DNA from: a virus
Taxonomy: Duplodnaviria; Heunggongvirae; Uroviricota; Caudoviricetes
Strand: one strand, 5' to 3'
Virus record (IMG/VR): IMGVR_UViG_3300020049_008481
DNA: 64,000 nt
Of this stretch, positions 4,563-30,315 are shown piece after piece. The notes beneath the pieces were generated by a model. The model was not told where the DNA came from. It was given only the letters and a program-made list of their open reading frames with translations, and did not search any database. The first letter of the stretch is position 1. Every line of letters starts with the position of its first letter. Position numbers and translations under genes: made by a program.

Positions 4563-4951
4563 GGAAGCTTTTCGTTTACGGAACCTTAAGGCCCGGAATG
4601 GCTTTATATCCGCTACTAGCAGACGTAGTAGTAAAATCTATTCCTGCAACTATTGAAGGTGAGCTTCACTCTTTCATGGGTGGAGCTTACCCGGTTGCAT
4701 TCCTAGATAAGCCGGGAGTAATTAAGGGTGATATCCTAACATGTTTAGAACATGGAGGCACACTTAACTCAGTGTGCGCTATGGAAAGACGTGCAGGATA
4801 CACGGAAAAGCTCGTAGATGCCACTACAGAGGATGGTAGAATCATTGAAGTCATGGCATTCGACTTCACTGAATACAGATTTATGGGTACGGATTGTGCA
4901 GTCACTTCCGGTGACTGGAAACAGTTCTGTGCCGAGAATCGCTACTATTGA
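4559..4951 (+). CDS. gamma-glutamyl cyclotransferase / AIG2-like family protein
   Basis: N-terminal KLFVYGTLRPG, the hallmark hFVYGTLk.G motif of the AIG2/GGCT fold; size 130 aa. Confidence 0.7.
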   Translation: MRKLFVYGTLRPGMALYPLLADVVVKSIPATIEGELHSFMGGAYPVAFLDKPGVIKGDILTCLEHGGTLNSVCAMERRAGYTEKLVDATTEDGRIIEVMAFDFTEYRFMGTDCAVTSGDWKQFCAENRYY

Positions 4952-4976
4952 CATTTAGCAGAACATCTGCTATACT
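4948..4976 (+). promoter_or_regulatory. sigma70-like promoter TTGACA-17-TATACT with a palindromic operator-like site (TAGCAGA-ACA-TCTGCTA, 4956..4972) in the spacer
   Basis: Exact consensus -35 hexamer and 17-nt spacer. The -10 TATACT is identical to three other candidate promoters in the window. Lies in the 106-nt gap upstream of the GAT-II gene. Confidence 0.4.
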
Positions 4977-5057
4977 GATATAAATAGTGCGTCAACCAAC
5001 GTACTTCAACTTTAAAAAACAAATCCATCTAAAGACGATGGTAAACTCAGAAAGAGG

Positions 5058-6506
5058 GTGGTCCTCATTTGTGGGATCGCAGGAATTAATCTATCAGATC
5101 AAGACGCAGGCGTCATCGACGCCGCTCAACTAGCCAAGAACCTACTTCTTGGAATCCAGTCCCGAGGCCGAGACGCCTCAGGAGCCGCATGGTACGACAC
5201 TGACGGTGTGCTAATGATCCAGAAGGATGCAATGGCAGCCACCAGCTTCGTAGAACAGCTTGACCTACCGAGTGACGCTCGGAATGTCATTCTCCATACA
5301 AGGATGGCTACCCAGGGTAGCCCCGAAAACAACCACAACAATCACCCGATCATTACCGGCAACATCGTTGGTGTTCATAACGGAGTTATGCACAACGACT
5401 ACAACTTGTTCCAGAAGATCGGCCCAGGTAGACGAATTGCCCAGGTAGACACGGAAGCGATCTTTGCTGCCATCGCCTATGGGCTAGAGAAGGACTCAGA
5501 TGGCAAGCATCTGATCGCCGGTTCCATTCCAGAAATCCTTAACGAGATTTCTGGTTCTGCTGCAATTGCATGGCAGGAAATTGATGGGAATCCCACAACG
5601 TTCCGTGTAGCCAAAATCTCTGGGTCCCCGTTCGTGTTTGCCCAGACTCCCGGTGGGTCTTTCATCTTCGCTTCTGAAGCTGAAATTCTCAACAAGGCTG
5701 CTGCAGCTTCAGACGTGGAACTACTGTTCGTTGACTCATTGACTGACGGTACTTTGATGGAGATTGACGCTGGCAAGATCGTGGCAGTCAATACCTGGGA
5801 AGACAAGACGCCTACCAAGAAGACGTACACCACTGGATCAGGCTACGTCAATCGATCTACCAACACTCCGACTCAGGGCACTCTGCCTGTTACTACAACT
5901 GGCAGCGACGAGTCAATGACTGAAATCATCGCAAAGGTGATGTCAGATTCTTCCTTTCATTCCCTTGCTGCCTCCCATGGGACGGTTGTTAACCATCTCA
6001 GCGAAGGCACTTACGTCGGGAATGGCAAATACGACGAAGAGTATGTCGAACGTGAAGCGTCTATTGATAGGTTCATGAAGCATATCAGTGACGAGCCTGA
6101 CACTGTGATTGACACCGTTCGGGACCTTCACGGCTTCGTTCGCCCTGGCAACTGGGTGATGACAGGCGTAGGCAATGTCCCCATCGTTGGGCAGATTGTT
6201 TCCCTACCCCAAGCGTTCCCCTACGGAGAATACATGATCAAGGGGTACTTCCCGATCAACAAGTATGATGACTTCGACACTGTTCTAGTCTCACGAAGCA
6301 ACGAAGATTTCATTGTATTCAATCAGGCAACACAATACATCCTTGACTCTGGGACTAGTCTAACAGCAGAGATGCTCAACACGTTCCAGTTGATCCTAGA
6401 GGATCTAGGAACCTATGTGGACTCAAGTGAGGACAAGTATGTGAGAACTTCAACTGGCAAGGATTACGTAGTGGGACCTGACAAGTCCCTTGTTCCAGTG
6501 AACTAA
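5058..6506 (+). CDS. class-II (Ntn-type) glutamine amidotransferase domain protein with an uncharacterised about 260 aa C-terminal domain
   Basis: N-terminal (MVLI)CGIAGI, with RGRDASG, HTRMATQG, NHP, HNGVMHNDYNLF and DTEAI blocks, match the PurF/AsnB/GlmS-type GATase-II domain. Four residues precede the catalytic Cys, implying a propeptide or a different start. Confidence 0.65.
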   Translation: MVLICGIAGINLSDQDAGVIDAAQLAKNLLLGIQSRGRDASGAAWYDTDGVLMIQKDAMAATSFVEQLDLPSDARNVILHTRMATQGSPENNHNNHPIITGNIVGVHNGVMHNDYNLFQKIGPGRRIAQVDTEAIFAAIAYGLEKDSDGKHLIAGSIPEILNEISGSAAIAWQEIDGNPTTFRVAKISGSPFVFAQTPGGSFIFASEAEILNKAAAASDVELLFVDSLTDGTLMEIDAGKIVAVNTWEDKTPTKKTYTTGSGYVNRSTNTPTQGTLPVTTTGSDESMTEIIAKVMSDSSFHSLAASHGTVVNHLSEGTYVGNGKYDEEYVEREASIDRFMKHISDEPDTVIDTVRDLHGFVRPGNWVMTGVGNVPIVGQIVSLPQAFPYGEYMIKGYFPINKYDDFDTVLVSRSNEDFIVFNQATQYILDSGTSLTAEMLNTFQLILEDLGTYVDSSEDKYVRTSTGKDYVVGPDKSLVPVN

Positions 6507-6513
6507 GGAAAAA

Positions 6514-7152
6514 ATGACAACTGTACAAGTAACCGGAGCCGTCGTAGGATCGGCACCCCAGCGGCGATCGACTATCAGAATAGTCGTACCTGTCAGAAAA
6601 AAGCTCCCTGACGGACTAATCCAGCATTCGACCTATTCCGTGCCGCTTCCCGATTACATCAGCTTTTCTGAATGGTATGATCTAGTTGAAGAAGAAGTAT
6701 CACGGCTACGTCACAATAAACAGTGGAAAGACTCTCCATGGATTGAAATTTCCAATAAGGCCAAGGAAAAGCTAGGCAAGCTTCTTATTCATCTAGAGAA
6801 AAACCCTAACGATGTTGCTGCTGGCATAGCTTTTCATAACAAGGTTAACAGATACCTTAGTCTACATAAAGCACGAGAGAATAAGGTAAGCAGAAGCTAT
6901 ACAGCACCACCAAAGGAAGTTGAAAAGCTCCCTGGATGGAAGCTAACAACCTTCCCTATTAGCCAAACTGGTGCTGCACTAATTCACTCCATTATTGGGA
7001 CTAGAGAAGAAGCTATCAAAAAGGCTGAAAAGGTACACAAGGAGCTAGTGGGTAACACGGTTCTGATCGGCTGTAAAAGGATGGAGCCTGTAACCTTAAC
7101 TAAGCCAGACACTAAAAGCTACTACTACAACTATGGGATGTGGGACTATTGA
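6514..7152 (+). CDS. hypothetical protein (212 aa)
   Basis: ORF tiled between the GAT-II gene and amidoligase 2; no motif recognised. Confidence 0.5.
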   Translation: MTTVQVTGAVVGSAPQRRSTIRIVVPVRKKLPDGLIQHSTYSVPLPDYISFSEWYDLVEEEVSRLRHNKQWKDSPWIEISNKAKEKLGKLLIHLEKNPNDVAAGIAFHNKVNRYLSLHKARENKVSRSYTAPPKEVEKLPGWKLTTFPISQTGAALIHSIIGTREEAIKKAEKVHKELVGNTVLIGCKRMEPVTLTKPDTKSYYYNYGMWDY

Positions 7153-8099
7153 CCACTTTTGGAATGGAAATCGAATTTCAGGACAATGCTGAACTTCTCG
7201 TAGAGAAGACGCACATGCTTTACCCTGAGCTTCTGCCCTCAGATTCATTACACTCATACCACTGTGACTGCAACAACTGCATGAGTCGCACTGTGACCCT
7301 AAGAGCGCAACGTGACTCTAGTTGTTCTGGAGAGCTAATCACAAAAGTCTTCAACGAAAACGAGTTCTCTGAATTTGTAGAGGTTCTAGACTGTCTTCAG
7401 GAAGTCGCTGTCGAAGTTGACGCTGTGCCTGGAACAAACGCTGGCGTTCATGTTCACGTTGTCCCAGTTACAGAAAACTTTCTACAGTGCCATGAGTTAT
7501 TATGGCAGTTTATGCGGTGGGAGGATGCAGTCATCCGGCTGGCTAATGGAAGATTCCCTGGCCTCCGTCCGATGAATACGTCAGTTCAGGAATCAAACCT
7601 GTATAACCTTCACACCCTATGGTACGATTATGCCCCAGAGGGGGAAGCTAGGAGAAGAGAGCTATCCGGGTTCAGTGAGTACGTTAAAAAGATTGACGCC
7701 CTGCCCAGCACCTTAGAGGTCGAGGTTGGTCAGCCTAGAGGGGCAACTAGGGAATGGTGGCTAGCTAACCTATTCAACAATCATTATGAAGCGGACAGGC
7801 ACTCGAATCTTGCAATCCGCACACGTCACGACACTTGGGAGTTTAGAGTGTGGAATTCTACACGCTCAGCTTGGCGTTGGGAAATGTATGCCAAAATGTC
7901 TCTGTTGTTAGGGAACTACGAGTTCATGAGTAACCTGAAAGACGTAGAGGTGCCCTCAGACCCGGACGAGGCTCTTGCGGTCCTTCATCCTCTAGTTGGC
8001 GCAAGAGATGAACGACTTGGGGAGTTGATGGGTAAGCAGATTGCATATCAGAATAGTGCAAACTATGGGTGGACTGATTTCTATCAGGTTAGCAGGTAG
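7140..8099 (+). CDS. amidoligase-family protein 2 (paralog of 2624..3439)
   Basis: FGMEIEF N-terminus, GVHVHVV, and EFRVWNSTRSAWR, which aligns with EFRAWNASRVAWR of the paralog. Confidence 0.45.
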   Translation: MGLLTTFGMEIEFQDNAELLVEKTHMLYPELLPSDSLHSYHCDCNNCMSRTVTLRAQRDSSCSGELITKVFNENEFSEFVEVLDCLQEVAVEVDAVPGTNAGVHVHVVPVTENFLQCHELLWQFMRWEDAVIRLANGRFPGLRPMNTSVQESNLYNLHTLWYDYAPEGEARRRELSGFSEYVKKIDALPSTLEVEVGQPRGATREWWLANLFNNHYEADRHSNLAIRTRHDTWEFRVWNSTRSAWRWEMYAKMSLLLGNYEFMSNLKDVEVPSDPDEALAVLHPLVGARDERLGELMGKQIAYQNSANYGWTDFYQVSR

Positions 8100-8101
8100 A
8101 T

Positions 8102-8839
8102 ATGCCACGTAACTACACTTTTACTACAACTACCCCACATGATTTTGCCCTCTCTGCATCTGCCATAGATGAGCAGCTTGAGCGTCTATTAACCCTACAT
8201 CCTACGACAGAAGAAAGAGCGTATTATATGCCAACAACAGCACGATCTAGAACTAGAGCCGAACAGGCAAGCGAGCTTTTACAGCGCAGAGTAAACCAAA
8301 CAATCCTGTCATCGGCTACTGATATTGAACATCCCCCTAGGCTGCCAGACCTGCCACAAGACCTCAACCTTGTGACATGCACCTACAATTCCGACAGGTC
8401 ATCATACCTGCAGTACGCCTCCCAAGCGTACTCGTTCTTTCGACAGACAGCTAGCAGGTATTCCCCAGCTACGCTAAACGCAATTGCGTATATCTCAGAC
8501 AATGCACACGATGGGACAACCGCTGACCTGCCGCAAATATCTGTAGCCCAAATCCCTTACCACTACGATGATGAATCCGAAATAAAGTTTGGTGGAATCA
8601 TTGGCATGCGAATTTCTTGGCCGGGGAAAACTGTCCTTACAGTTCACCCCCAGGTTCGTAGGTCTGGCATTGGGACGTTACTTGTATCTGATTCCTCTAC
8701 CCCGCTTAAGCTCTGGGTTGGGCGAACGAACATTGCTGCACAGATTTTCCTCCTATCCAGAGGGTTCTATGCAGAAGCTTTCAACCGAAACGGAGCGGTC
8801 CTTTACAGCAGGAACTCTGACGACGCAGAAGGGTCTTGA
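8102..8839 (+). CDS. protein with a C-terminal GNAT-like acetyltransferase motif
   Basis: VHPQVRRSGIGTLLV resembles the GNAT acetyl-CoA-binding motif (Q/R-x-x-G-x-G/A); the N-terminal 150 aa are unassigned. Confidence 0.4.
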   Translation: MPRNYTFTTTTPHDFALSASAIDEQLERLLTLHPTTEERAYYMPTTARSRTRAEQASELLQRRVNQTILSSATDIEHPPRLPDLPQDLNLVTCTYNSDRSSYLQYASQAYSFFRQTASRYSPATLNAIAYISDNAHDGTTADLPQISVAQIPYHYDDESEIKFGGIIGMRISWPGKTVLTVHPQVRRSGIGTLLVSDSSTPLKLWVGRTNIAAQIFLLSRGFYAEAFNRNGAVLYSRNSDDAEGS

Positions 8840-9297
8840 TCGAAATCAATGAGTCAACTATTGAACCGGAATTCGTTTTTGAGATAGATGCATACAAGGT
8901 AGTCGAAGGGGACTTCATCGTCCACAAAGACGAGATAATGTATGTTGAAGATGTCGAGAAGCTTGAAAACACTCCACTCCCGACTGTAGCTATTTCGGCT
9001 AAAGGTCCTCATGGGCACAGGGATGTTATGTTTTTTCATTTCGATGAGGGCGTGCAAATCTATTGTCCTAAAACTGATGACTACGATGACATTAAAGACA
9101 GAGAAGGCTACCAGCAGTTCGCAGATGGCGGATATGATGATGAAGAGGATTACGATATGTTCTGGAATAATAGACATGGATGGGACTCTTATCATGGATA
9201 CAGGTCAGTAAAGAAGACTTATTCCCCTGTGATGCCGGTTCCTCTTCCTGCTTCAACTATTCTTAGTAACGTTAAAGACATATTCAGGAGACAATAA
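8836..9297 (+). CDS. acidic hypothetical protein
   Basis: ORF overlaps upstream stop by 4 nt; Asp/Glu/Tyr-rich. Confidence 0.45.
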   Translation: MIEINESTIEPEFVFEIDAYKVVEGDFIVHKDEIMYVEDVEKLENTPLPTVAISAKGPHGHRDVMFFHFDEGVQIYCPKTDDYDDIKDREGYQQFADGGYDDEEDYDMFWNNRHGWDSYHGYRSVKKTYSPVMPVPLPASTILSNVKDIFRRQ

Positions 9298-9536
9298 TGA
9301 TTGTTGTTCATCAGGAACCACTCATTCAACTTCGCCGTATCCGAAGCAACGGAGCGGGTTATGACGCTTGGAACCTCTGGGCTTGGTCTATCCTAGATGG
9401 GGACCGCCGAACGGGCGGAACTTTCGAAGGAGCTATCTCCCCTGCACACGCAACCCGAAAACTTGCCCGCATTGTGCGCCGACCGAACCGCCAGATCTGG
9501 ACCCAGGTTTCTAACGATGAGATGAGATACAAATGA
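9297..9536 (+). CDS. hypothetical protein
   Basis: ATGA-type overlap tiling. Confidence 0.4.
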   Translation: MIVVHQEPLIQLRRIRSNGAGYDAWNLWAWSILDGDRRTGGTFEGAISPAHATRKLARIVRRPNRQIWTQVSNDEMRYK

Positions 9537-10048
9537 CAACATGGTGTTGTGACATAACAAAAGAAGAAAGCCCACTAGCCCATAAAACCTTCGAGCACCC
9601 CAACTGGTGCCCGCTTTCACCTGACTATGTTCCCGCATTCAAAGAATACTACAAGTCGATAGATGAAGAGTGGTATAACAAGAAGAAGTACAAAATCAGT
9701 AAGCTACCTGCCCGAGTCTTGTGGAAAGGCGATGTTTTAGTATCAAAGAAGAATCAAAGATGGCTGGTCGTTGGTAGAGAAGTAGACGACGCTCTCATCT
9801 GGGTTAATCTAAAGAACATTGATGTAAGTTATGACAACTATAAGTATGGATGCTTCGACAAGGAAGAAGAAGTTAGCATGATTATAAAGCCGTCAGGACT
9901 TAAGACTAAGACATTACGGCGAGCATATCCTGCTAGACCTGCCAGTCATCTACTTATTGAGGCTCTAACTTTGAATGAAAAACTCCCTGAAAGAGTTGAA
10001 TCATGGGAGAAAGCATACTCTAACCCAAGAAAGATTTCTAGCAAATAA
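9533..10048 (+). CDS. hypothetical protein
   Basis: ORF, tiled. Confidence 0.5.
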   Translation: MTTWCCDITKEESPLAHKTFEHPNWCPLSPDYVPAFKEYYKSIDEEWYNKKKYKISKLPARVLWKGDVLVSKKNQRWLVVGREVDDALIWVNLKNIDVSYDNYKYGCFDKEEEVSMIIKPSGLKTKTLRRAYPARPASHLLIEALTLNEKLPERVESWEKAYSNPRKISSK

Positions 10049-10625: not shown

Positions 10626-11399
10626 ATGCCTAGAGCGCACGTAGCAAACTTCACAATCCAGCTAGGACCAATCAGCCTGACTGGAAGACTATTCAATATC
10701 ACCCTACCGAACCGAAACGAATACCGTGAATTCGTTTCAATCGCACCCGACATTGAACCCCCAACGAGGGTTCAGCAAGTGTATCAGACGCCCGAAGGCA
10801 CAGGCTCATGGACCCGAGGACAATTAGCTCGGGCACGTGTTGTCCTTAATAATGAAGGCGAAGAAGAACTAGTCAAGGTGTCAGTAGAAGATGTTGCAGA
10901 AGTAAGGACATCAACTCTACCTGAGAACGTTCTACGCACAACCATTCATCCACGTAAAGAAATTGAAGGATCAACATTCTTTGCGGAAGGCTCATATGTG
11001 TTCGTGCCTAACATTGCAGACGAATATCATGGCCTAGTTTTAAAGATGGTTTCAGACTCAGACAAGGCATTCGTTGGCATGTGCAAGGTACGTACCACAG
11101 AAGGATTCTGGCGGCTAACAACATGGCGCAACCAGATTGTAGTACAGAAACTGCTGTGGCCCGATGAGGTAACAGAACTTGAAGGTGTGAGTGTGGAACT
11201 TCCACAGGAACATTACGATGCAGCCATGCAGATGATTGACCGTGTAACAGTAGACTTTGATGCTTCACAGTACAGAAACGCATACCGTGAACGTTCTGAA
11301 CAGTTAGACGCAGAGCTTAGTGGTTCTGAGTTGCCACGAGAGGCCCCTACAACACCCGTAGACAGCCTCCTGAGCATCCTTGAAGGGTTCGGTGCCTAA
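10626..11399 (+). CDS. hypothetical protein (257 aa)
   Basis: ORF preceded by a 160-nt gap that may hold a 55-aa GTG-start ORF. Confidence 0.5.
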   Translation: MPRAHVANFTIQLGPISLTGRLFNITLPNRNEYREFVSIAPDIEPPTRVQQVYQTPEGTGSWTRGQLARARVVLNNEGEEELVKVSVEDVAEVRTSTLPENVLRTTIHPRKEIEGSTFFAEGSYVFVPNIADEYHGLVLKMVSDSDKAFVGMCKVRTTEGFWRLTTWRNQIVVQKLLWPDEVTELEGVSVELPQEHYDAAMQMIDRVTVDFDASQYRNAYRERSEQLDAELSGSELPREAPTTPVDSLLSILEGFGA

Positions 11400-12213: not shown

Positions 12214-12547
12214 ACAAGACTTAATTCGTACCGAACTAACTAGTCTTAGAACACTAACAAAAGATGATCTAGACGCAGAAATCGATGCCCTAAAAAAGTA
12301 TGCATGGTTTACTTTTTTTGAAAAGAAATACTATGAAGCCGTGTGTGCAGAACGTACATATCGTATTCCATGTGAAGCAGTAGTCTTCTGCGGGCCAGGT
12401 CATCAGTCAACAGCGAAATGCGAACAACGAGGGCCACATAAGACGCATTATGTTTCTTTTGTTATTGGACCTGATGGGTGCTCAATGGAATGGACAGACG
12501 ATGATATCGTAGATTTACCAAATGGTAAACGAGGTGTGTTTAGTTGA
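12206..12547 (+). CDS. hypothetical protein
   Basis: ORF, tiled. Confidence 0.45.
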   Translation: MAEQDLIRTELTSLRTLTKDDLDAEIDALKKYAWFTFFEKKYYEAVCAERTYRIPCEAVVFCGPGHQSTAKCEQRGPHKTHYVSFVIGPDGCSMEWTDDDIVDLPNGKRGVFS

Positions 12548-13326
12548 GAATTCTTCTAGCAGGCGACCTGCATGGACAACTAGACTCAGCCAGTCAAGTT
12601 ATTGAAGCCGCAACAGAAGAAAATATTGACCTAATTATTCAATTAGGGGACTTTGGATTCATCTGGAAAGACGATGACCTCAGCAAGTTCAACAAGCTAA
12701 ATGACATGTTGACAGAATCCAAGAAGACAATGTTCTTCCTAGACGGTAACCACGAAAACTTTGACCTGCTAAACAGGTTAGGTGCAAACACAGAAAATTT
12801 GACAATCACACAACTTCAAAGTAGAGTCTACTACCTACCCCGAGGTTACAGATTTAACATAGACGGCGTGAAATTCATGTCGTTCGGTGGAGCAACATCT
12901 GTGGATCAAGATTCTAGAGTACACTTTATCTCCTGGTTCCCACAGGAAGCCATTACAGACGTACAAGTACGTAAAGTCACAGAAGAACCAGTAGATATTC
13001 TATTAACACATGACTGCCCTGAACTAACCGGCACCTTGCGAACATATTTAAATCAGACAGAATTTACATGGCCCGATAGGCTAATCAGGTCATCATGGGG
13101 CAATCGAATGAGACTCTATGAGATTTACGATAAAGTGAAACCTAAAATTCTAGTCCATGGACACTATCATTACTGTTACAAAGATAAATTACAATACGGT
13201 GACTTGTATCGTTATAAAGATGAAATACAGTACGGTGATGTGTATGGTCTAGGGTGTGATGGTGTGCCTAACTCAATGGCCATCTTGGACACTAAAGATC
13301 TATCTATTAAAGGACAATGGGCATGA
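12544..13326 (+). CDS. calcineurin-like metallophosphoesterase
   Basis: GDLHG, GDFG, GNHE and HDCP metal-binding motifs of the metallophosphoesterase superfamily. Confidence 0.7.
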   Translation: MRILLAGDLHGQLDSASQVIEAATEENIDLIIQLGDFGFIWKDDDLSKFNKLNDMLTESKKTMFFLDGNHENFDLLNRLGANTENLTITQLQSRVYYLPRGYRFNIDGVKFMSFGGATSVDQDSRVHFISWFPQEAITDVQVRKVTEEPVDILLTHDCPELTGTLRTYLNQTEFTWPDRLIRSSWGNRMRLYEIYDKVKPKILVHGHYHYCYKDKLQYGDLYRYKDEIQYGDVYGLGCDGVPNSMAILDTKDLSIKGQWA

Positions 13327-15630: not shown

Positions 15631-15784
15631 AGAAGTTGATGCGATATGGACTCTTATTAGTGCAGCCAGTGCCTGGAAACGTATCCTAATGGATGAAGCA
15701 GATTACGAAGACGAAGGTGGCGAGCAGATCACAGAGGCCATACAGACAATGCGTGAATCGTTGAAAAAGAATAATGACACATAG
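15620..15784 (+). CDS. hypothetical small acidic protein (about 54 aa, below the track cutoff)
   Basis: ATG..TAG ORF filling the 143-nt gap before the RuvB-like gene, overlapping its start. Confidence 0.3.
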   Translation: MNRKEVDAIWTLISAASAWKRILMDEADYEDEGGEQITEAIQTMRESLKKNNDT

Positions 15785-16670
15785 ACCAACTTCATGGTCT
15801 GACTATATAGGACAAGAGAGTCTTAAAGACAGACTGCAACTCCATATCCAATCATCGTTAGAACGTGGCGTGAATCTACCACACGTTCTACTAGTCTCTG
15901 GTCCTGGAATGGGCAAGACAACGCTGGCCTCGATCATCTCCAATGAGATGGGGCAACCGTTCGAAAACTTCATCATGCCACTTAAGCCAAGAATCCTAGA
16001 ACGTGTGGTAAAGAACCAGGAAGGTGTTGTCCTCTTTGACGAAATCCATAGAAGCAACCCGAGACAGCAGGAAAGTCTACTAACATTCATAGAAGATAAC
16101 TATTACCTTGACGACAGAGGTAATAGATGGGACAATAACAATCTTACAGTGGTAGCCGCTACCACCGAAGGTGATAAAATCATTCGGCCATTGTATGAAC
16201 GGTTCAAAAATGCAGGAATTCTCCCTACCTTCGACCCCTATACCCAGCAAGAGATAATGCAAATCATTTCTAATGGGATGAAAAAAGAAATGCTATATAT
16301 GAATGAGGTGGACTTGGAATTGCTGGCGAAAGCTTCTCTTGGTGTCCCTCGAAATGTCAATGGCTTTATTTCAGTCGCTAGAGATTTATTCTACCAGAAT
16401 GGGAATTCGCCTTCTGCTTTAGAAATTCTAGATGCACTAAGAATAACAGAGACAGGGTTATCAGTAGAACACATCAGGTATCTTAAAAACTTACTAGCTG
16501 CCGGTGGGCAGGCCGGATTGGAACTTATGCAAATGATGCTGAGTATCCCAGAAGGCGCTATAGTCCAGTTAGAAATTGATCTGATCAGGCAGGGGCTTAT
16601 TGAACGTCAAGCCAGAGGTAGAGAGATCACAGCCCTCGGCGCTAGGCTAGCGAGAGACGTAGAGGTTTAA
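15774..16670 (+). CDS. RuvB-like AAA+ ATPase (Holliday-junction branch-migration helicase-like)
   Basis: LLVSGPGMGKTTLASIISNEMG (Walker A / RuvB N-terminal block), VLFDEIHR (Walker B and sensor region), QESLLTFIED. Confidence 0.65.
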   Translation: MTHRPTSWSDYIGQESLKDRLQLHIQSSLERGVNLPHVLLVSGPGMGKTTLASIISNEMGQPFENFIMPLKPRILERVVKNQEGVVLFDEIHRSNPRQQESLLTFIEDNYYLDDRGNRWDNNNLTVVAATTEGDKIIRPLYERFKNAGILPTFDPYTQQEIMQIISNGMKKEMLYMNEVDLELLAKASLGVPRNVNGFISVARDLFYQNGNSPSALEILDALRITETGLSVEHIRYLKNLLAAGGQAGLELMQMMLSIPEGAIVQLEIDLIRQGLIERQARGREITALGARLARDVEV

Positions 16671-18043: not shown

Positions 18044-18086
18044 GAATCTTCGTGCCCGTAGAAGTTGGGGACGAGCCGAGAAGATC

Positions 18087-18263
18087 ATGACTTACATGGT
18101 TAAACATGGCATCACTGAAATGAAGTTTGAAAGAGACGACGCCAATACATTTGATTGCGTCATTAAATTTGGTGATTCAGATGGACCGTGGAGTATTCTT
18201 GAACTAACTGACCATAATAACATCAAAACTGATTTCTATAAATTCTTTGGGGTGGGATGGTAA
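18087..18263 (+). CDS. hypothetical small protein (internal start of 18033..18263)
   Basis: ORF. Confidence 0.35.
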   Translation: MTYMVKHGITEMKFERDDANTFDCVIKFGDSDGPWSILELTDHNNIKTDFYKFFGVGW

Positions 18264-18282
18264 TAAATGCTAACTTTACAAA

Positions 18283-19419
18283 ATGGCAATAGCGGATAGA
18301 CAATTAGCCTGGAATGATCTTCAGCCATGTGGCAAACAAAAGAAGCACAATTGGGACGGACGCCTCTGTCTCAGATGCGGATTCAAAATCCATAGGCGAA
18401 AGAAGATATCTCAGACTAAAATCAAAATCCTAAAAGAACAGCAGGATAACAAATGTTTCTACTGCAAACAAGAACTTAACGAAGAAACATTAACTGTTGA
18501 CCACAAGACCCCCATTAGCAGACAAGGTACGGATGCTATAGAAAACTTATGCCTAGCCTGCAAGAAATGCAACCTAGAGAAGAATAACTTAACGTTAGAA
18601 GAGTTCAAAATGCATCTTCCAATGCTCGCAGAATCCATGGACAAAGAACGACTAATGGAACTAGTCAGCGATAACTCATTCTGCTTTCAGCAAAAAGTTG
18701 ACGGAGACAGAATGATAGTCGAGGTTGACAACGGAGCGGTTACCGTCTACAATAGGGATGGTAAAGAATACACTCGCCAGGTAAAAGTTTTACGTCCTGT
18801 GATTAAAGAGTTCTCGAATCCAGAATTCTTTAAAGGTGTATGGCTATTCGATGGTGAATATATTAACCGCAAATATTATGTCTTTGATCTAATCAAAGTG
18901 ATCAACACAAACGGTGTTAATATCATTCAAGACGCCACTTACCATATGAGATTAGACTGCCTCAACACGATCTTCAATCATTGGGCACCTAATCACATCA
19001 TGCAACTCCCTTCGCATCTTACCTCCAAGGATAAAGAAGATTTCTTAGATAAGGTTGACGCATCTAATTCAGAAGGCGTAATTGCCAGACGAATGACTGC
19101 TCCATACCAGTCAGGTGCAAGGACAACGAACTTACTTAAGTTTAAGTTCGTTGAAACGGCTGACCTAAGAGTGACCGGCATTAATGAACAGGCAAGTATT
19201 TCCCTAGAGTGTGCTGACGATATCCCCATCGGTAATTGCACTATGAGCGCAACTAATCTTCGTAGGGTAAAGATTGGTGACATCGTTGAGATTCGCTACT
19301 TATATGTAGGGAAAAGTAATCGGCTATATCAGCCTGCGTTCATGAGAATCCGTAATGACAAGTCGGAACCAGATCCTTTTGGTTCACTTAAGCTAGTAAA
19401 TAAGGATGTACTGGTATGA
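18283..19419 (+). CDS. HNH endonuclease domain fused to an ATP-dependent polynucleotide ligase (nucleotidyltransferase) domain
   Basis: N-terminal CFYCKQ...TVDHKTPISRQG...NLCLACKKCNLEKNN (HNH with CxxC pairs). Ligase motif I KVDGDR, motif III FDGEYI, motif IV-like SEGVIARR, motif V LLKFKF. Confidence 0.6.
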   Translation: MAIADRQLAWNDLQPCGKQKKHNWDGRLCLRCGFKIHRRKKISQTKIKILKEQQDNKCFYCKQELNEETLTVDHKTPISRQGTDAIENLCLACKKCNLEKNNLTLEEFKMHLPMLAESMDKERLMELVSDNSFCFQQKVDGDRMIVEVDNGAVTVYNRDGKEYTRQVKVLRPVIKEFSNPEFFKGVWLFDGEYINRKYYVFDLIKVINTNGVNIIQDATYHMRLDCLNTIFNHWAPNHIMQLPSHLTSKDKEDFLDKVDASNSEGVIARRMTAPYQSGARTTNLLKFKFVETADLRVTGINEQASISLECADDIPIGNCTMSATNLRRVKIGDIVEIRYLYVGKSNRLYQPAFMRIRNDKSEPDPFGSLKLVNKDVLV

Positions 19420-19535
19420 CCTATAAAGATTTAGCTTGGGCTTTCGAAGGGGCCGTGGGTAAAGTGAATAATATCTTGAAGGCCGATGCTTTAATCGCAG
19501 CACTAGCTCGTATCATCACCACTACGATGTGACAA

Positions 19536-19905: not shown

Positions 19906-21081
19906 ATGACAACCTTAACAGATAAGTTCTCTGCTCTAGAAGCAGACCTAAACGAAAGCGTTTTCGAACGTCAGCGTGAAATTCATGCAATGCTGAATGC
20001 TCTAGTTTCACAGAAGCATTTCTTCATGATCGGCCCGCCCGGTGTAGGCAAGTCCTATATGATTCGTGAGTTAGTTGATCGTGTAGATTTCTCAGACTCT
20101 CACCTAGACAATCCTTACTTCCAGTGGCTGCTAACAAAGTACACTACCCCTGAGGAAGTGCTCGGCCCGCCTTCTATTGTTGAAATGGAGAAAGGTAACT
20201 ATGTTAGGGTAACTGATCGCAAGCTTCCAACCGCTGCTATTGCGTTCCTAGATGAGATTTTCAAGGCCAACTCGTCTATTCTTAACGCCCTGCTAACCAT
20301 CTCCAACGAGAGACTGTTCTTCAACGGTGCAGATGAGGAACGTGTGCCGCTATCCTCCATCTTTGCGGCCTCCAATGAGATGCCCGCAGATGATGGGCTA
20401 TGGGCGCTTTGGGATAGATTGCATTTTCGGTTTAACGTAGGCCCACTTCACGAGCCTGGGAACTTCATTCGGATGCTTGACACCCACAACAGCACAACAC
20501 AGAAGGATGTAGAGAAGTTTCTGACTTGGAATGACATCCTGGAAGCACAGGAAGGCGTCAAGCAGGTAAAAATCTCAACAGAGATTCTAGAAATCATGCG
20601 TGCCCTTCGTGACGACCTTGCAGCTAAGGGCATTGAGCCGTCTGAGCGACGGTTCGCTGAATGTCTGCCGATCATCCAGGCTGAGGCTTATCTGAACGGT
20701 CGTGATGAGGTCGAAGTAGATGACCTACGTATTCTACGCCATGTAATGTGGGGTCGGCCCGAAGATGCTAGAGTGGCTGAGCGTGTTATCCTAGAGCTAG
20801 CTAACCCTCTAGAGAAGGAAGCCCTAGATATTCTAGAGCGAGTGGAGAAGCTGGATAAGGATCTTAACAAGGTTCTGTCTGATGCAGATAACGATAACCA
20901 GGCTGCCAGTCAGTCAGTGGAAATCTGGACGAAGCTTAAGAAGGCCAAGATCACTCTTAAGGAACTTCACGCTAAGATCGAAGAGTCAGGCCGCAAGTCC
21001 GAGATTATTGATCTTGCTGACGCAAAGGTTAACGAGGTTGCTACTCGGGTAATGAAGGACGGATTTAAGGGAGAGCTATAA
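19906..21081 (+). CDS. MoxR-like AAA+ ATPase
   Basis: FFMIGPPGVGKSYMIRELV Walker A; AIAFLDEIFKAN Walker B; size and layout typical of MoxR/CbbQ/NorQ-type ATPases. Confidence 0.65.
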   Translation: MTTLTDKFSALEADLNESVFERQREIHAMLNALVSQKHFFMIGPPGVGKSYMIRELVDRVDFSDSHLDNPYFQWLLTKYTTPEEVLGPPSIVEMEKGNYVRVTDRKLPTAAIAFLDEIFKANSSILNALLTISNERLFFNGADEERVPLSSIFAASNEMPADDGLWALWDRLHFRFNVGPLHEPGNFIRMLDTHNSTTQKDVEKFLTWNDILEAQEGVKQVKISTEILEIMRALRDDLAAKGIEPSERRFAECLPIIQAEAYLNGRDEVEVDDLRILRHVMWGRPEDARVAERVILELANPLEKEALDILERVEKLDKDLNKVLSDADNDNQAASQSVEIWTKLKKAKITLKELHAKIEESGRKSEIIDLADAKVNEVATRVMKDGFKGEL

Positions 21082-21344: not shown

Positions 21345-21504
21345 GGCTGAGGTATTAGCAGAAGCTTTTATGGAGAAGTACGGTCTAATTAATTGTGGTA
21401 TGCTTGTTTGTATCGGCCCCAGAGAATATCGTTCTGATATACAAAAAGCATATAATGAGGGTTACAAGCAAGGGCAAGAGTTAGTTAATAGAGCGGAGAG
21501 ATAG
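21337..21504 (+). CDS. hypothetical small protein (about 55 aa, below track cutoff)
   Basis: ATG overlapping the upstream stop (GATGATGAGTAA) and running to the TAG that overlaps the GTG start of the vWA gene. Confidence 0.3.
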   Translation: MSKAEVLAEAFMEKYGLINCGMLVCIGPREYRSDIQKAYNEGYKQGQELVNRAER

Positions 21505-23072
21505 TGAGTGATTTCCTAAGAGGATTCTTAAACAACAACAAACAGTCACCCGATGAGGCCAGCAAAAATGCTATCATCCGTGACAAATGGGATGAGGAAT
21601 CCTACCAGTCAATCCTCAAAGAAATGAAGGCACTCCGTAAGTCCGAAGAGAAGCTGGCAGATGTTGTAACGACAGGCTCATCGGCTTACGCTGATAACTT
21701 CTACGCTCTGCTTAAAGCAATGCCACAATTAGAGACACGTGGCAACATGCGGGCCTCCCATCTTGTCAATCATCGTGTAGCACAGGAAGCACAGGAACTA
21801 AAAGAGTTCAAGGAGCTTCGCACCTACACAGTGAATGATGATGTGGCAACCGCCCTGTCTTCTATCACGATGGAACCTGAGCTAGAAATCCTGTTCGATA
21901 AACTCAAAGAGGAACAGAAAGCGGCTGAGGAACTACAGAAGAAAATGGATCAGATGGCTGGCCTGGATCAGCAGGAATCAGACATTGACGATCTACTGTC
22001 CCAGCTTGAAGATGACGCTGATGAAGCAGAAGTGCAGAACTATCAGGAACAAAAAGGTGCTGTTCAAGATGCAAAAGACGCTTTACAGAAAGCCATAGAC
22101 GAAGGGGCACAAGCTCTCCAAGATGCCCTAGATGGCAAGACCGCTGATATCCAGTCGGCTCTAAAGAAAATGGCAGGTGACGCCATTGGTGAACAGGAAA
22201 GCATCGAACAGGCTGAGTCATGGGGCATGTCCCCAGGCGAGTTGAAGAGGCTCCCTGCCAATAAGCGTCTAGAGTTAGCGAAGAAGATTTCCAATGATCG
22301 ATTCAGGAGAATATCTGAACTGATCGGGCCAATGATTCGCATGGCATTCGCTGAACGACAGAAGCGAACCATCCATTCACGTGACGAAATCTATGATATT
22401 GAAACAGGCAATGACCTGTCAAGAATTATCGCCAACGAATTGCTTGCCTTAAAGCATAAGGCTTTACGTAACGACTTCATTCGTAGGTTCTATGAGGAAA
22501 GACTGCTACAGTATAAGCTTAAGGGCGAAGAAAAGCTTGCTAAGGGTGGTATAATCTTCTGCGAGGACGGGTCAGGGTCAATGTCAGGCGACAGAGAACT
22601 CTGGGCTAAAGCGGTCGGGTTGACTTTATTGCAGATCGCTAAGTCACAGAAGCGTGAATTCCATGGCATCCATTTCGGTGGACCAAGACAGATTAAACAT
22701 TTTGATTTTTCTGATATCCGTAATGTTCAGATCGAACAGCTAATTGACTTTGCTGAGGTGTTCTTTTCAGGAGGCACCTGCTTCATGACTCCCTTGTCTA
22801 AGGCGCTTGATATCCTAAAAGTACAATATGAGAAAACTGGTGCCGTTAAAGCTGACATTGTGTTCTGCACAGACGGGCAATGTGCAGTCGATCCGGCATG
22901 GCTTGAAGCGTTCAAGAAAGAACAGGATCGCCTAGGATTTAATGTCTATGGGGTGGTCATTGGTGGTACTATAATGGATGAGCCTCTTCGAACAATTTGC
23001 GATGGGAAGGTCACTACGGTTAAGCGCCTTACATCAGGAACGGATATGCGTGATGTTTTTGGGACATTATAA
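21504..23072 (+). CDS. von Willebrand factor A (vWA) domain protein with an acidic coiled-coil N-terminal half
   Basis: IIFCEDGSGSMSGD (MIDAS DxSxS) and VFCTDGQ (MIDAS T/D); encoded immediately after the MoxR-like ATPase. Confidence 0.65.
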   Translation: MSDFLRGFLNNNKQSPDEASKNAIIRDKWDEESYQSILKEMKALRKSEEKLADVVTTGSSAYADNFYALLKAMPQLETRGNMRASHLVNHRVAQEAQELKEFKELRTYTVNDDVATALSSITMEPELEILFDKLKEEQKAAEELQKKMDQMAGLDQQESDIDDLLSQLEDDADEAEVQNYQEQKGAVQDAKDALQKAIDEGAQALQDALDGKTADIQSALKKMAGDAIGEQESIEQAESWGMSPGELKRLPANKRLELAKKISNDRFRRISELIGPMIRMAFAERQKRTIHSRDEIYDIETGNDLSRIIANELLALKHKALRNDFIRRFYEERLLQYKLKGEEKLAKGGIIFCEDGSGSMSGDRELWAKAVGLTLLQIAKSQKREFHGIHFGGPRQIKHFDFSDIRNVQIEQLIDFAEVFFSGGTCFMTPLSKALDILKVQYEKTGAVKADIVFCTDGQCAVDPAWLEAFKKEQDRLGFNVYGVVIGGTIMDEPLRTICDGKVTTVKRLTSGTDMRDVFGTL

Positions 23073-26101: not shown

Positions 26102-26926
26102 TTATTTAGTGGGCCACCAGGGTTGAACTTCTGGATACTTTTCTTCCATAAAGTCACCAACAGGCACTCCCTCATATTTTCTACATAGAGAATCTAAACT
26201 CACCAAGGAAAGATCATAACTACCATTTTCAACGTGATTTTTAATGATGATTCCACGCCAATGCTGGTTACCGATGTAACCTTTGTAACCCTCTGATGCG
26301 AGATAGGCGGCTCCTGCTACTAACCCATGCTGGGACTGCCCACGGACATAACGCATGGAATAGTCTAGAATCTGCTGATGCCCCATGCTAAAAGAATGAC
26401 CAATCGTTTTTAGTCTTGTAGAAACAACACCACCTAAAGGTTTCCCCGTCATGGGGTTCGGGAAAAAATGGGCATAGATTACACCGTCAACATCTACAGG
26501 TTCAAGATAATCAAACACTTCCCAACCACGTGTATTTAAATCCTGATAACCAATAGTGCCATCAAGGATGGGGTTGTCTTGAATACAACGTTCGATACGT
26601 TGCTCATGATTCCCTAACAAGAAAATCTTACGTGGCTTATATTCTTCCTGTCTACGCTTACGACGCCCCTTATTAAAAAGGTCGGTACTGGCGTCGAGCA
26701 GTCGAAACGCATTGTTTCCTGCTTCAATATCCTCCTTATAACGGCGACCTTCAAACTGAATCTTACCACGATCGAAGCTACATAACGATTCCATATCGTA
26801 TGTGTCACCTAAATTCACGATAACATCTGGTCTACGTTCTAGTAGATACTTGGATATCCAAGTTAAATGATCCAATGGATCACCCGGTTTTACTTGCAGG
26901 TCGGGTATAACTGCGTGTGTTGTCAT
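26102..26926 (-). CDS. calcineurin-like metallophosphoesterase (Ser/Thr phosphatase-like)
   Basis: DLQ, NLGDTYD, GNHE motifs; second phosphoesterase in the window, not closely related to 12544..13326. Confidence 0.7.
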   Translation of the reverse strand: MTTHAVIPDLQVKPGDPLDHLTWISKYLLERRPDVIVNLGDTYDMESLCSFDRGKIQFEGRRYKEDIEAGNNAFRLLDASTDLFNKGRRKRRQEEYKPRKIFLLGNHEQRIERCIQDNPILDGTIGYQDLNTRGWEVFDYLEPVDVDGVIYAHFFPNPMTGKPLGGVVSTRLKTIGHSFSMGHQQILDYSMRYVRGQSQHGLVAGAAYLASEGYKGYIGNQHWRGIIIKNHVENGSYDLSLVSLDSLCRKYEGVPVGDFMEEKYPEVQPWWPTK

Positions 26927-27743: not shown

Positions 27744-29759
27744 GTGGAGTTTTTAACATTCAAACTGTCCGATGAGTTCGTAAACACTTACAAAAAAGTT
27801 CGTCCCAACTGGGGATTAGACATAGGTGGTGGGAACTACCTATCAGAACTAGTCTTCGTCTCAAAGTATAGCCGCAAAAAGGCTGACGGGACAAAAGAAC
27901 AATGGTATGAAACATGTCGTAGATGTATTGAGGGCTACTATTCCATCTTAAAGGATAACTGCAAGCGCAACAAGACACCTTGGAATGAGTTCAAGGCGCA
28001 GAAGTCGGCAGAAGATGCTTACGCTAGAATGTTTGCATTCAAATGGACGCCGCCCGGTAGGGGCATGGCTAACATGGGGACAGAGATGGTTCATGAAGAA
28101 GGGGATATTTCAACCCTGATCAATTGCGCTGCCGTTACGACTGAAAAGATTTCACACCACTCGGCATATGAAGCAACTTTCCCATTTGTTAGACTAATGG
28201 AAATGTCAATGCGTGGTGAAGGCGTTGGGTTTGACACTCGGGGCGCAGGCAATCTCACCTTACATAACCCTACAGAAGAAACTATCGAATATGTAATCGG
28301 TGACACTAGAGAAGAATGGGCAAAATCTGTAGGTATTCTTCTGGAATCATTCTTCTTTAAGAACCGTCCCACTGTTATCTTTGATTATTCACAGATTAGA
28401 CCAGCAGGTGCCCCACTAAAGAGGTTCGGTGGGAACGCCTCAGGTCCAGGGCCACTAAAGACCCTGCACGAAACATTAGTGTCCCAGTTATCTAACCGTG
28501 AAGGTAAACTAATTACCTCACGTGACATCGTTGACATTATGAACAAGATTGGTAAAGCCGTTGTGGCCGGTGGGGCACGAAGAAGTGCGCTACTAAGCCT
28601 AGGTGATGCAAGTGACGACGATTATGTTAACTTAAAGAACTGGGAACTAGAAGAAAACAAAGAACGAACCGGAGAAGATGGATGGGCATGGACTTCAAAT
28701 AACTCCATCATTGCTCGCAACGGAGATAACCTAGATCATCTAGTTGATAAGATTGCGGTAAATGGAGAACCAGGCATTATTTGGGTTGACACCATGGCAA
28801 ACTATGGTAGACTAAAAGATCCCGCTGACTTCAAGGACAAAGCAAATCTTACAAACCCTTGTGCAGAGATTCCATTAGAATCATCAGAGCTATGCTGCCT
28901 ATCAGAACTTTATCCTGCACACCATGACTCGCTTGAAGACTTTAAAGCGTCAATGAAGCATGCGTACATGTACGCTAAGGCCGTGGTTCTTCTAACATCA
29001 CCTTGGGGTGAAACAAACGAAGTTATCACACGCAACCGACGAATCGGTGTATCAATAACGGGTGTTGTAGACTTCATCGAAAACCGTTCATGGTTTGAAA
29101 TGCAAGAATGGATGGACAAAGGATACGATTACCTAAGAGGTTTGGATAAAAAGTATTCGGCTTGGCTGGGGGTCAGGGAGTCTATTCGACTTTCCACAGG
29201 TAAGCCTGCTGGAAGCACTTCATTGATTGCTTCTACTACCTCAGGTTTTCACTGGCCTACAACCTCAGGTTTCTTCACAAGACGAATGAGATTTCATAAG
29301 GTCGATCCGATGGTGCAAATTCTTGAAGATGCCGGATACCCCATTGAACCAAGCGTAGATGACCCTACTTCAACTGTAGTTGTCGAGTTCCCCGTAACAG
29401 GGTTAAATGTTAGAAGTGAACGTGAAGTTTCTATCTGGGAGAAAGCACACTTGGCTGCGATGGGACAGAAGTATTGGTCAGATAATATGATTTCAGTCAC
29501 CGTATCCTTCGATAAGGATACCGAGGCCGATCAGATTGCGCCTCTTCTCAGATCGTTCCAGGGCAGCCTTAAGAGCGTTTCCTTCCTTCCTATCAGCAAA
29601 GAGGGTACAAGCTACGTACAGGCCCCTCTAGAGCCTTCTACGGAGGCTGAGGTGCTTGCTGCGCAATCGGGCAAGAAGCTTATTAAGTTCTATAAGTCAA
29701 AGTTAAATGAAGCACAGGGTGAGCGTTTCTGTAACACTGACCATTGTGAAATTCCTTAG
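27744..29759 (+). CDS. ribonucleotide reductase catalytic subunit (single-chain, probably class II / NrdJ-like)
   Basis: NPCAEIPL active-site Cys/Glu motif and VVAGGARRSALL (GG.RRGA) motif. The 671-aa size and absence of an adjacent NrdB favour class II. Confidence 0.65.
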   Translation: MEFLTFKLSDEFVNTYKKVRPNWGLDIGGGNYLSELVFVSKYSRKKADGTKEQWYETCRRCIEGYYSILKDNCKRNKTPWNEFKAQKSAEDAYARMFAFKWTPPGRGMANMGTEMVHEEGDISTLINCAAVTTEKISHHSAYEATFPFVRLMEMSMRGEGVGFDTRGAGNLTLHNPTEETIEYVIGDTREEWAKSVGILLESFFFKNRPTVIFDYSQIRPAGAPLKRFGGNASGPGPLKTLHETLVSQLSNREGKLITSRDIVDIMNKIGKAVVAGGARRSALLSLGDASDDDYVNLKNWELEENKERTGEDGWAWTSNNSIIARNGDNLDHLVDKIAVNGEPGIIWVDTMANYGRLKDPADFKDKANLTNPCAEIPLESSELCCLSELYPAHHDSLEDFKASMKHAYMYAKAVVLLTSPWGETNEVITRNRRIGVSITGVVDFIENRSWFEMQEWMDKGYDYLRGLDKKYSAWLGVRESIRLSTGKPAGSTSLIASTTSGFHWPTTSGFFTRRMRFHKVDPMVQILEDAGYPIEPSVDDPTSTVVVEFPVTGLNVRSEREVSIWEKAHLAAMGQKYWSDNMISVTVSFDKDTEADQIAPLLRSFQGSLKSVSFLPISKEGTSYVQAPLEPSTEAEVLAAQSGKKLIKFYKSKLNEAQGERFCNTDHCEIP

Positions 29760-29766
29760 GAGATAA

Positions 29767-30315
29767 ATGGGTTTCCAAGATAGAAAGTTTAGAACTGCAA
29801 AGGCAGAAATTGAACGAGCCAACCAGTTCATCCAATCAATATGGGCCACAACGGGTGGCACCGTAACAACCTCTGAAAAGGTAGATATGACAGAACCAGA
29901 TTTAAATGAATCTATACAAGATTTTACAAGAAAGCTAATTGACCAGGCAAAGCTAATTGGAGAAAATCCAACATCGGATAGACTAACACTAGACGAGTAT
30001 CAACGCAGGACTCAGGACACCGCAGTTTACCCCGGCAAAGGCAGCACGCTCGGTTTGTACTATACTGCTCTAGGATTAGGTGAAGCGGGCGAAGTTCAGG
30101 GTAAAGTAAAAAAGATCATTCGGGACGACAATAGCGTCTTAACAGACGAGAAAAAGACAGCTATAGCCAAAGAGCTAGGAGATATATTGTGGTATTGCGC
30201 AGCCTTAGCTTGTGAATTAGGTCTATCATTGGGTGAAATAGCAGAAGCTAATCTTAGCAAACTTGCCTCACGCAAAGAACGTGGAGCAATACAAGGGAGT
30301 GGCGATGACCGCTAA
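29767..30315 (+). CDS. MazG-like nucleoside triphosphate pyrophosphohydrolase
   Basis: GLGEAGEVQGK (EExxE-type helix) and ELGDILWYCAALA motifs typical of the MazG/HisE all-alpha NTP-PPase fold. Confidence 0.7.
   Translation: MGFQDRKFRTAKAEIERANQFIQSIWATTGGTVTTSEKVDMTEPDLNESIQDFTRKLIDQAKLIGENPTSDRLTLDEYQRRTQDTAVYPGKGSTLGLYYTALGLGEAGEVQGKVKKIIRDDNSVLTDEKKTAIAKELGDILWYCAALACELGLSLGEIAEANLSKLASRKERGAIQGSGDDR

Follow-up and report, generated by a model that had tools for sequence, protein, structure and literature searches.

Small zinc-ribbon HNH proteins of phages are known as strand-specific nickases with a minimal domain of 76 amino acids (PMC3592412; PMC3765158), and zinc-ribbon appendages are typical of these enzymes (PMC3592412). 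HNH domains contact the minor groove of DNA, and the HNH nickase MobE can promote homing (PMC3592412), while the Gme HNH enzyme prefers damaged DNA carrying apurinic/apyrimidinic (AP) sites and has been proposed to act in repair (PMC3765158). Ligases with N-terminal modules are also known already, as is the nuclease-ligase LigD, and fusions of HNH domains to Rnl2 RNA ligases occur in phages (Burroughs & Aravind 2016, as cited in Iyer et al. 2021, PMC7824862). The Ku-encoding mycobacteriophages Omega and Corndog use the LigD of their host (Pitcher 2006, as cited in PMC7719229). The gene described here lies in a stretch of 64,000 nucleotides from a virus of the class Caudoviricetes (IMG/VR record IMGVR_UViG_3300020049_008481), referred to below as the window. 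It occupies positions 18283..19419 on the plus strand and encodes, in one chain, an HNH nuclease module and a compact ATP-dependent DNA ligase. The literature searched held no report of an HNH domain fused to an ATP-dependent DNA ligase, and the data inspected yielded no second example of these two parts together.

Read from its ATG start to its TGA stop, the gene is a single open frame of 378 amino acids with no internal stop codon in the open reading frame (ORF) listing. An independently assembled Joint Genome Institute (JGI) contig, L002, was 100% identical to positions 17617-19852 of the window (2,236 bp), and the identical protein was recorded on 5 contigs, the longest of 130.7 kb. According to Pfam, the chain matched HNH (PF01844) with 41.1 bits (cut-off 21.4; E=2e-10) over residues 58-102 and DNA_ligase_A_M (PF01068) with 72.3 bits (cut-off 26.2; E=5.6e-20). 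The original prediction had proposed, from the sequence alone, that an HNH nuclease and a polynucleotide ligase share one polypeptide at exactly these coordinates; the domain models confirm this, at a level far beyond chance, and the frameshift or stop between the domains that it had named as a possible refutation is unsupported by the available assemblies. We take the single chain to be genuine and to comprise, in order, residues 1-37 as a possible zinc knuckle, residues 38-109 as the HNH core, residues 110-290 as the adenylation domain, and residues 291-378 as the OB domain.

When considering the N-terminal part, the HNH core is of the beta-beta-alpha-metal type (18394..18609, plus strand) and was delimited by Pfam, alignment to the solved structure 4h9d, AlphaFold, and Foldseek. 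Additional Pfam matches corresponded to HNH_5 (PF14279; 38.0 bits, cut-off 27.5) and HNH_4 (27.5 bits, cut-off 22), and the HNH endonuclease family phrog_2118 was matched at 1e-23 in PHROGs. Alignment to 4h9d and to the HNH domains of IscB and Cas9 placed a four-cysteine zinc site at C58/C61/C93/C96 and the catalytic residues at D73, H74, N88, and N97. These positions correspond one to one with C38, C41, C73, and C76 and with D53, H54, N68, and N77 of Gme HNH, and all eight residues are conserved, in agreement with the earlier claim that the first 110 or so amino acids carry a complete HNH/zinc motif. No solved protein is closer, by sequence or by fold, than the Mn-dependent Gme HNH nicking endonuclease (4h9d); the IscB and Cas9 HNH domains come next. 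The HNH part was modelled separately, the full-length AlphaFold model having no usable HNH part or inter-domain geometry; in the HNH-only model the predicted local distance difference test (pLDDT) was about 90 over residues 41-100, and Foldseek ranked 4h9d at the top, then Cas9 HNH domains, with a probability of 1.00. Residues 38-109 align to the first 75 or so residues of free-standing phage and prophage HNH proteins of 100-137 amino acids (35-41% identity), and the core ends with the TLEEF helix of the family. According to the family alignment, the conserved C-terminal segment of about 40 amino acids found in these relatives (TLHERIxKPFIxRLGxxYGI...FDGKFYFE) is missing from the fusion. The first 37 residues (18283..18393, plus strand) are a lineage-specific extension absent from the small HNH relatives; they show the pattern C16-x5-H22-x6-C29-x2-C32, were modelled with a pLDDT of 35-71, and could form an extra zinc knuckle or zinc ribbon. 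By analogy with its closest solved relatives, the HNH module is a predicted nickase. Assignment to the T4 endonuclease VII type of resolvase was rejected (Pfam Endonuclease_7, 16.6 bits, cut-off 23.6); a PHROG labelled 'endonuclease VII' did match, at 3e-17, more weakly than the generic HNH families.

The remainder of the chain (residues 110-378) is, as judged from its motifs and its model, a complete minimal ATP-dependent DNA ligase made of a nucleotidyltransferase (NT) and an OB domain with motifs I-VI. The family of ATP-dependent DNA ligases phrog_114 was matched at 6e-34 in PHROGs. The motifs named in the original prediction were all located in the ORF, namely motif I, KVDGDR, at residues 138-143 (the codon of K138 being 18694-18696), motif III, FDGEYI, at 189-194, motif IV, EGVIAR, at 264-269, and motif V, LLKFKF, at 284-289; motif IIIa, YYVFDL (198-203), and motif VI, RIRNDK (355-360), are present too, the latter aligning with motif VI of the ligase domain of Mycobacterium tuberculosis (Mtb) LigD. 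Twelve positions are invariant in the 150 closest cluster representatives: K138, D140, G141, D190, E192, F201, D202, R223, E264, G265, K288, and D359. The AlphaFold model, built with the 150 relatives, exceeds a pLDDT of 95 throughout residues 111-378 and consists of an adenylation domain (18610..19152, plus strand; supported by PF01068, the invariant columns, AlphaFold, and Foldseek) followed by a beta-rich OB domain (19153..19416, plus strand; supported by AlphaFold, the LigD alignment, and the invariant D359). The Pfam OB models remained below their cut-offs. The best 50 Foldseek matches in the PDB were DNA ligases and a few capping enzymes and spanned both the NT and OB domains; they include the Mtb LigD ligase domain (1vs0), T4 ligase (6dt1), Lig III, Lig E (6gdr; TM-score 0.68, normalised to the target), and the ligase of African swine fever virus (ASFV), although sequence identity with solved ligases is low (about 17-21%). 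This half of the protein would be the phage's own minimal ligase, sealing nicks with 3'-OH and 5'-phosphate ends through a lysine-AMP intermediate at K138.

The border between the two halves is sharp. HNH-family homology runs to ...NLTLEEFK109, where the relatives read ...LSLEKFR or RTLEEY, and ligase-family homology starts at M110-HLPMLAES, the core-only ligases having their own initial methionine 0-4 residues before the conserved P-MLAES. Specifically, the relatives P0002, P0003, and P0019-P0042 start 0-4 residues from the column of Met110, the HMMER matches of core-only relatives begin at query residues of about 110-133, which are their own N-termini, and the tblastx homology of the ligase loci L003, L004, L008, and L009 begins at position 18619 of the window. 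Because HNH homology stops where ligase homology and the core-only starts begin, the fusion point coincides with the ancestral start codon of the ligase (ATG at 18610-18612, plus strand), with practically no linker. This internal ATG is also a possible initiation site, and a ligase-only product from Met110 is possible. The Shine-Dalgarno sequence before it is weak (-2.4 kcal/mol), and such data are not diagnostic since the neighbouring genes also lack one; a promoter and terminator scan around the junction likewise gave nothing diagnostic.

The distribution of the two parts was examined with profile searches. An exhaustive, filter-only HMMER search of 1.84 billion representatives gave 16,689 matches. 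The best 150 were inspected, and ligase families more distant than these could still include fusions with HNH. Apart from the query itself, none of these 150 matches the HNH part, the matches starting at query residues of about 93-133, and Pfam found the ligase domain in all 150, a WGR domain in 33, and HNH only in the query. The original prediction had proposed to check whether orthologous ligases lack the HNH part, and all 149 closest relatives do. By architecture, 102 of them are core-only, 39 carry an N-terminal extension (89-182 amino acids), and 8 are extended at the C-terminus. The N-terminal extensions are almost all WGR-like, with one resembling a SWIM zinc finger (P0158); no WGR match was found by Pfam in the query. 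In a neighbour-joining tree of the core, the query is nested in a clade of 10 core-only ligases, the closest being P0019 with 41% identity. In the reverse direction, a profile built from the seed alignment of the HNH part gave 4,642 matches; the best 120 inspected were phage and prophage proteins of 100-137 amino acids or RRXRR/IscB-like proteins, and none has a ligase domain. A 117-amino-acid HNH query returned no candidates in the word-index search. When 86 ligase-family loci (369 kb) were scanned with a hidden Markov model (HMM) of the HNH core, none contained such a domain, no second fusion was present in 50,697 GenBank phage records, and a word-indexed search of 5.8 billion proteins found the HNH and ligase parts combined only in the identical protein. 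Searches of IMG/VR through the bpMoxR protein encoded downstream, the fusion, and a Ku-like protein described below returned nothing or only a ligase relative at 29% identity, megablast with an 8-kb query found nothing among phages, and a metagenome scan returned distant ligases only, without the window's own contig. The combination is thus as uncommon as had been claimed, no second HNH-ligase appearing among the relatives inspected, and the HNH fusion looks lineage-specific.

Several apparent exceptions were examined and set aside. Tunturi_5 gp61, aligned by tblastn to query residues 48-364, was shown by Pfam and alignment to have a WGR-like N-terminus and no HNH domain. Some phage HNH matches extended to residues 150-187, and blastp with the ligase part found nothing in them, while the extension of the Javan166 HNH match into the ligase region reads across a stop codon and is an artefact. 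Other variants of the ligase family were also observed: a SWIM-like zinc finger (CxC...CxH) precedes the ligase in P0158, unassigned C-terminal extensions of 84-110 amino acids are found in eight relatives, and a DUF6011 domain lies at the C-terminus of P0012 and P0015. In L003, a core-only ligase is preceded, at a distance of about 5 kb, by a gene (4808..5347) for a stand-alone WGR protein of 179 amino acids, and in this ligase system WGR may come either as a fused domain or as a gene of its own.

The genes identified in the window include those for a ribonucleotide reductase, a DnaG-DnaB primase-helicase, a DNA polymerase, a Sak4-like protein, RecA, a PD-(D/E)XK exonuclease, an endolysin, a tail fibre, and a tRNA-Met. 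Upstream of the ligase, a RuvB homologue is encoded on the plus strand (15774..16670; RuvB_N 86.5 bits and RuvB_C 43.8 bits in Pfam), and downstream, also on the plus strand and assigned by Pfam, are a bpMoxR AAA+ ATPase (19906..21081) and a VWA-domain protein (21504..23072). Neither RuvA nor RuvC was recognised among the window ORFs scanned. In L003, a RuvB-like gene (8618..9715) is situated one gene upstream of a core-only ligase, and in L004 a ligase is followed by bpMoxR and VWA genes (6619..9353), collinear with the window; both ligases lack HNH. The block formed by RuvB, the ligase, and the bpMoxR-VWA pair is therefore conserved in distant phages that have no HNH domain. Further upstream, 7 kb from the fusion, a gene on the plus strand (10626..11399) encodes a protein of 257 amino acids that matched phrog_4873 at 1.2e-6 and, by phmmer against the PDB, the bacterial Ku proteins 8v53 and 9i91 at E values of about 1e-5, with no Ku match in Pfam. 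A homologue lies in L004 (1394..2287; phmmer 3e-15, Ku 1e-8), 1.2 kb upstream of the ligase of that locus, and none was found in L003. We tentatively consider this gene to encode a Ku-like DNA-end-binding protein and a candidate partner of the ligase, and the two may form a phage-encoded Ku and ligase pair.

Other elements of the endonuclease type were found in the replication module. The DnaG-primase/DnaB-helicase ORF (37456..40404, minus strand; 982 amino acids) contains an insert of about 390 amino acids with a LAGLIDADG_3 match (residues 583-632). It interrupts the helicase Walker A motif (AKTNVGK...T), starts with a residue other than Cys or Ser, and finishes with ...IVTHN|T. The insert is intein-like in sequence, and the presence of W, C, and T in its blocks B, F, and G would be compatible with class 3. 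Matches of this ORF to PHROGs for the 'terminase large subunit' map to the insert. A free-standing HNH protein of 244 amino acids (43903..44637, minus strand; phrog_10822 at 5.5e-29, with Pfam HNH just below the cut-off) is encoded between the PD-(D/E)XK exonuclease and the 1394-amino-acid DNA polymerase; its subfamily is not that of the HNH fused to the ligase, and neither tblastn nor HMM gave a cross-match between the two. The RecA of the window is bacterial-type (40412..41371, minus strand; 407 bits in Pfam). Its closest cellular relatives among species representatives are mostly from the Acidimicrobiia/Actinomycetota, at 60-67% identity, which is a weak hint at the host lineage; the guanine-cytosine (GC) content of the window is only 44%. 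Elsewhere, a plus-strand cluster (5058..8839) encodes a glutamine-amidotransferase-like protein (phrog_14519, 4e-42) together with a weakly amidoligase-like (7140..8099) and a weakly GNAT-like protein (8102..8839) and may be a modification or metabolic module. Two calcineurin-like metallophosphoesterases (12544..13326, plus strand, and 26102..26926, minus strand) were found in the early/replication region, and the window also encodes a MazG-like pyrophosphatase (29767..30315) and the ribonucleotide reductase (27744..29759).

Taken together, we lean, with moderate confidence, towards an origin in which a small phage HNH gene, minus its C-terminal tail, was fused to the ancestral start of the ligase gene. 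A free-standing HNH endonuclease gene of the nickase type would have come to lie directly upstream of the ligase gene, would then have lost its tail of about 40 amino acids together with its stop codon, and would have joined in frame exactly at Met110. Both catalytic centres being intact, the resulting protein is predicted to be capable of nicking DNA, with 3'-OH and 5'-phosphate ends as products, and of sealing such nicks; the two halves may be functionally coupled. The addition would be recent and confined to one lineage, the ligase being a conserved syntenic component of the replication/recombination module that would seal nicks during these processes, perhaps alongside the Ku-like protein. 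That the HNH domain is a derived gain is indicated by the core-only state of the nearest clade, the synteny without HNH, and the free-standing nature of the HNH relatives. A selfish or mobile origin is suggested by four features: the HNH module occurs sporadically, its relatives stand free, the junction falls at the ancestral ATG, and further mobile endonucleases reside in the same replication module. The alternative, raised in the original prediction, of a ligase gene invaded in frame by an HNH homing module fits best as regards acquisition; invasion within the coding sequence is contradicted by an N-terminal addition that ends at Met110, and homing is a candidate explanation. Several observations weigh against this account. 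No repeats flank the HNH segment, and the GC content hardly differs between the HNH part (0.40) and the ligase part (0.41), with no difference at third codon positions (GC3) either, so that base composition gives no hint of a recent foreign source. A precursor state, with a separate HNH gene just upstream of a related ligase, was present in none of the 86 loci, and the databases contain no sister phage above 41% ligase identity and no HNH-less sister allele for a comparison of target sites, so that the insertion event cannot be reconstructed. No long-target DNA-binding module like those of classical homing endonucleases is recognisable in the HNH part. Finally, the frequent WGR domains of the relatives show that the N-terminal slot has been used adaptively, and the intact catalytic residues and the precise, linker-poor junction are equally compatible with a bifunctional enzyme maintained by selection.

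Such a selected enzyme, in which HNH would nick or process ends or junctions in recombination, in resolving concatemers, or in end joining and genome circularisation assisted by Ku, and the tethered ligase would reseal them, is the alternative we take most seriously, even if it seems unlikely on balance. Its logic would parallel that of bacterial LigD, which pairs nuclease with ligase, or of T4, where ligase acts after endonuclease VII. HNH cleavage leaves 3'-OH and 5'-phosphate ends, which are the exact substrate of the ligase and can be joined directly. The intact state of both active sites, the recombination-rich module (RuvB, RecA, the exonuclease, and the Sak4-like protein), the linkage of a Ku-like gene to this ligase family in two phages, the LigD ligase domain as closest solved ligase, and the AP-site preference of Gme HNH, a proposed repair enzyme (PMC3765158), all speak for this function. 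However, the architecture is a singleton, unmatched in the 149 closest relatives of the ligase, the best 120 of the HNH part, and the 86 loci; the RuvB/Ku/ligase context exists without HNH, the Ku assignment lacks Pfam support, the Endonuclease_7 score falls below its cut-off, and Gme HNH alone is not a Holliday junction resolvase (PMC3765158). The stronger version, a self-contained ATP-driven nick-and-reseal or end-joining enzyme that would cut or trim phage DNA at its ends, at junctions, or at particular sites and would work, perhaps with the Ku-like protein and RuvB/RecA, as a minimal phage machine for end joining, circularisation, or resolution, is doubtful. An end-joining role, like the genome end processing suggested in the original prediction, is possible since a Ku-like gene lies nearby.

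The HNH/zinc module could also act mainly in DNA binding or nick sensing, replacing a WGR domain, another DNA-binding domain, or a latch and helping the NT-OB core to encircle DNA, with nuclease activity absent or incidental. The N-terminal extensions of 39 of the 149 relatives occupy the same slot and cover a range of lengths that includes the 109 amino acids of our module, N-terminal DNA-binding modules are well known in ligases (PMC7470946), and the minor-groove contacts of HNH domains would suit such a part. This explanation is improbable, given that D73, H74, N88, and N97 are all kept, which would be unexpected for a structural role, and that the nearest clade works without any N-terminal domain. 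Far less probable still is an enzyme of RNA or tRNA repair, a role raised in the original prediction and modelled on the HNH-Rnl2 fusions, which offer a precedent (PMC7824862). Although 103 of the 150 relatives match Pfam RNA_ligase (PF09414) at E<=0.001, this family is not among the matches of the query at E<=1; the C-terminus is an OB fold with motif VI and not the helical C-domain of Rnl2, and the best 50 structural matches hold no RNA ligase. Moreover, the neighbours are DNA replication and recombination genes, and among the window ORFs scanned none was recognised as a polynucleotide kinase, as RtcB, or as a further RNA ligase, although two generic metallophosphoesterases are encoded. These results disfavour the RNA-repair proposal. 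Equally remote is an artefact, whether two genes merged by an assembly or sequencing error or a wrongly assigned start with the ligase made from Met110 alone. It would draw on the lack of a Shine-Dalgarno sequence at 18283 (+1.5 kcal/mol) and on Met110 being the ancestral start position, preceded by a weak purine-rich stretch. Nevertheless, the frame is open throughout, the neighbouring genes at 15774 and 19906 likewise lack a strong Shine-Dalgarno sequence, and HNH-family homology reaches K109, leaving no space for a stop codon or an intergenic spacer; an assembly error is unlikely because the independent contig agrees at every one of 2,236 bp, and this protein recurs on 5 contigs.

Under the favoured origin by capture of an HNH gene, we are likely dealing with a single-lineage event of ordinary origin, and if the fusion is merely a recent accident its interest is local. 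Even so, it would record a rarely caught step for a selfish nuclease gene, namely its in-frame capture by an adjacent essential gene, and it would provide a natural experiment on how minimal ligases gain N-terminal accessory domains, with WGR in many relatives and HNH in the query. If both sites are active, the protein would be a compact natural nickase and DNA ligase of 378 amino acids, a possible tool for nick-and-reseal or nick-translation-type work. Additionally, with the Ku-like gene close by, an end-joining pair of Ku and ligase encoded entirely by the phage becomes conceivable, in contrast to the known Ku phages, which rely on the LigD of the host.

When compared to described systems, residues 110-378 show the same two-domain core and six motifs as the minimal NT-OB ligases (Lig E/Lig C type, with a Chlorella-virus-like core), and their length matches that of the 102 core-only relatives (260-290 amino acids); in contrast, the 109-amino-acid HNH module is absent from all inspected relatives. 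The WGR-NT-OB ligases (Williamson & Leiros 2020, PMC7470946), to which gp61 of the Tunturiibacter phage Tunturi_5 belongs by type, share the ligase core family and the N-terminal attachment point. Their accessory domain is WGR, whereas that of the query is a nuclease with intact catalytic residues in a clade that is otherwise core-only. The HNH core resembles the zinc-ribbon nickases of the N.phiGamma and Gme HNH (4h9d) type in size (72 amino acids against the 76 of the minimal domain), in the [CxxC]2 zinc site, and in the H-N-N catalytic variant, and the possible zinc knuckle before it may be a further likeness; the core differs in being fused instead of free-standing, and from its closest HNH relatives in lacking the C-terminal tail they keep. 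The HNH nickases involved in packaging (Xu & Gupta 2013; HK97 gp74 type) adjoin cos, terminase, and portal genes, whereas our gene sits in a replication module with RuvB, small ORFs, and the bpMoxR-VWA pair around it, and no terminase was identified among the window ORFs scanned.

Likewise, the free-standing homing endonucleases of the T4 mob/seg type are similar in their sporadic presence, the HNH module being absent from the 149 ligase relatives and the 86 loci, and in their location at conserved DNA-metabolism genes, in a genome that bears further mobile elements of the endonuclease type. Those enzymes are independent ORFs, in contrast to the in-frame fusion described here, in which no long-target DNA-binding module was detected. 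The HNH-Rnl2 fusions are comparable in carrying an N-terminal HNH domain on a phage ligase of the covalent nucleotidyltransferase superfamily; the ligase of the query is of the DNA-ligase NT-OB type with motif VI and not Rnl2. Regarding LigD/Ku end joining, the Mtb LigD ligase domain is the closest solved ligase to the query, and LigD also joins a nuclease (phosphoesterase) to a ligase. In our protein the nuclease is HNH, Pfam found neither PrimPol/polymerase nor phosphoesterase domains, and the scores with the NCBIfam equivalog models of LigD stay well below their cut-offs (TIGR02779, 65.3 against 227.75; TIGR02776, 46.1 against 373.2). Finally, in the Ku systems of Omega and Corndog the ligase comes from the host, whereas the ligase described here is encoded by the phage itself.

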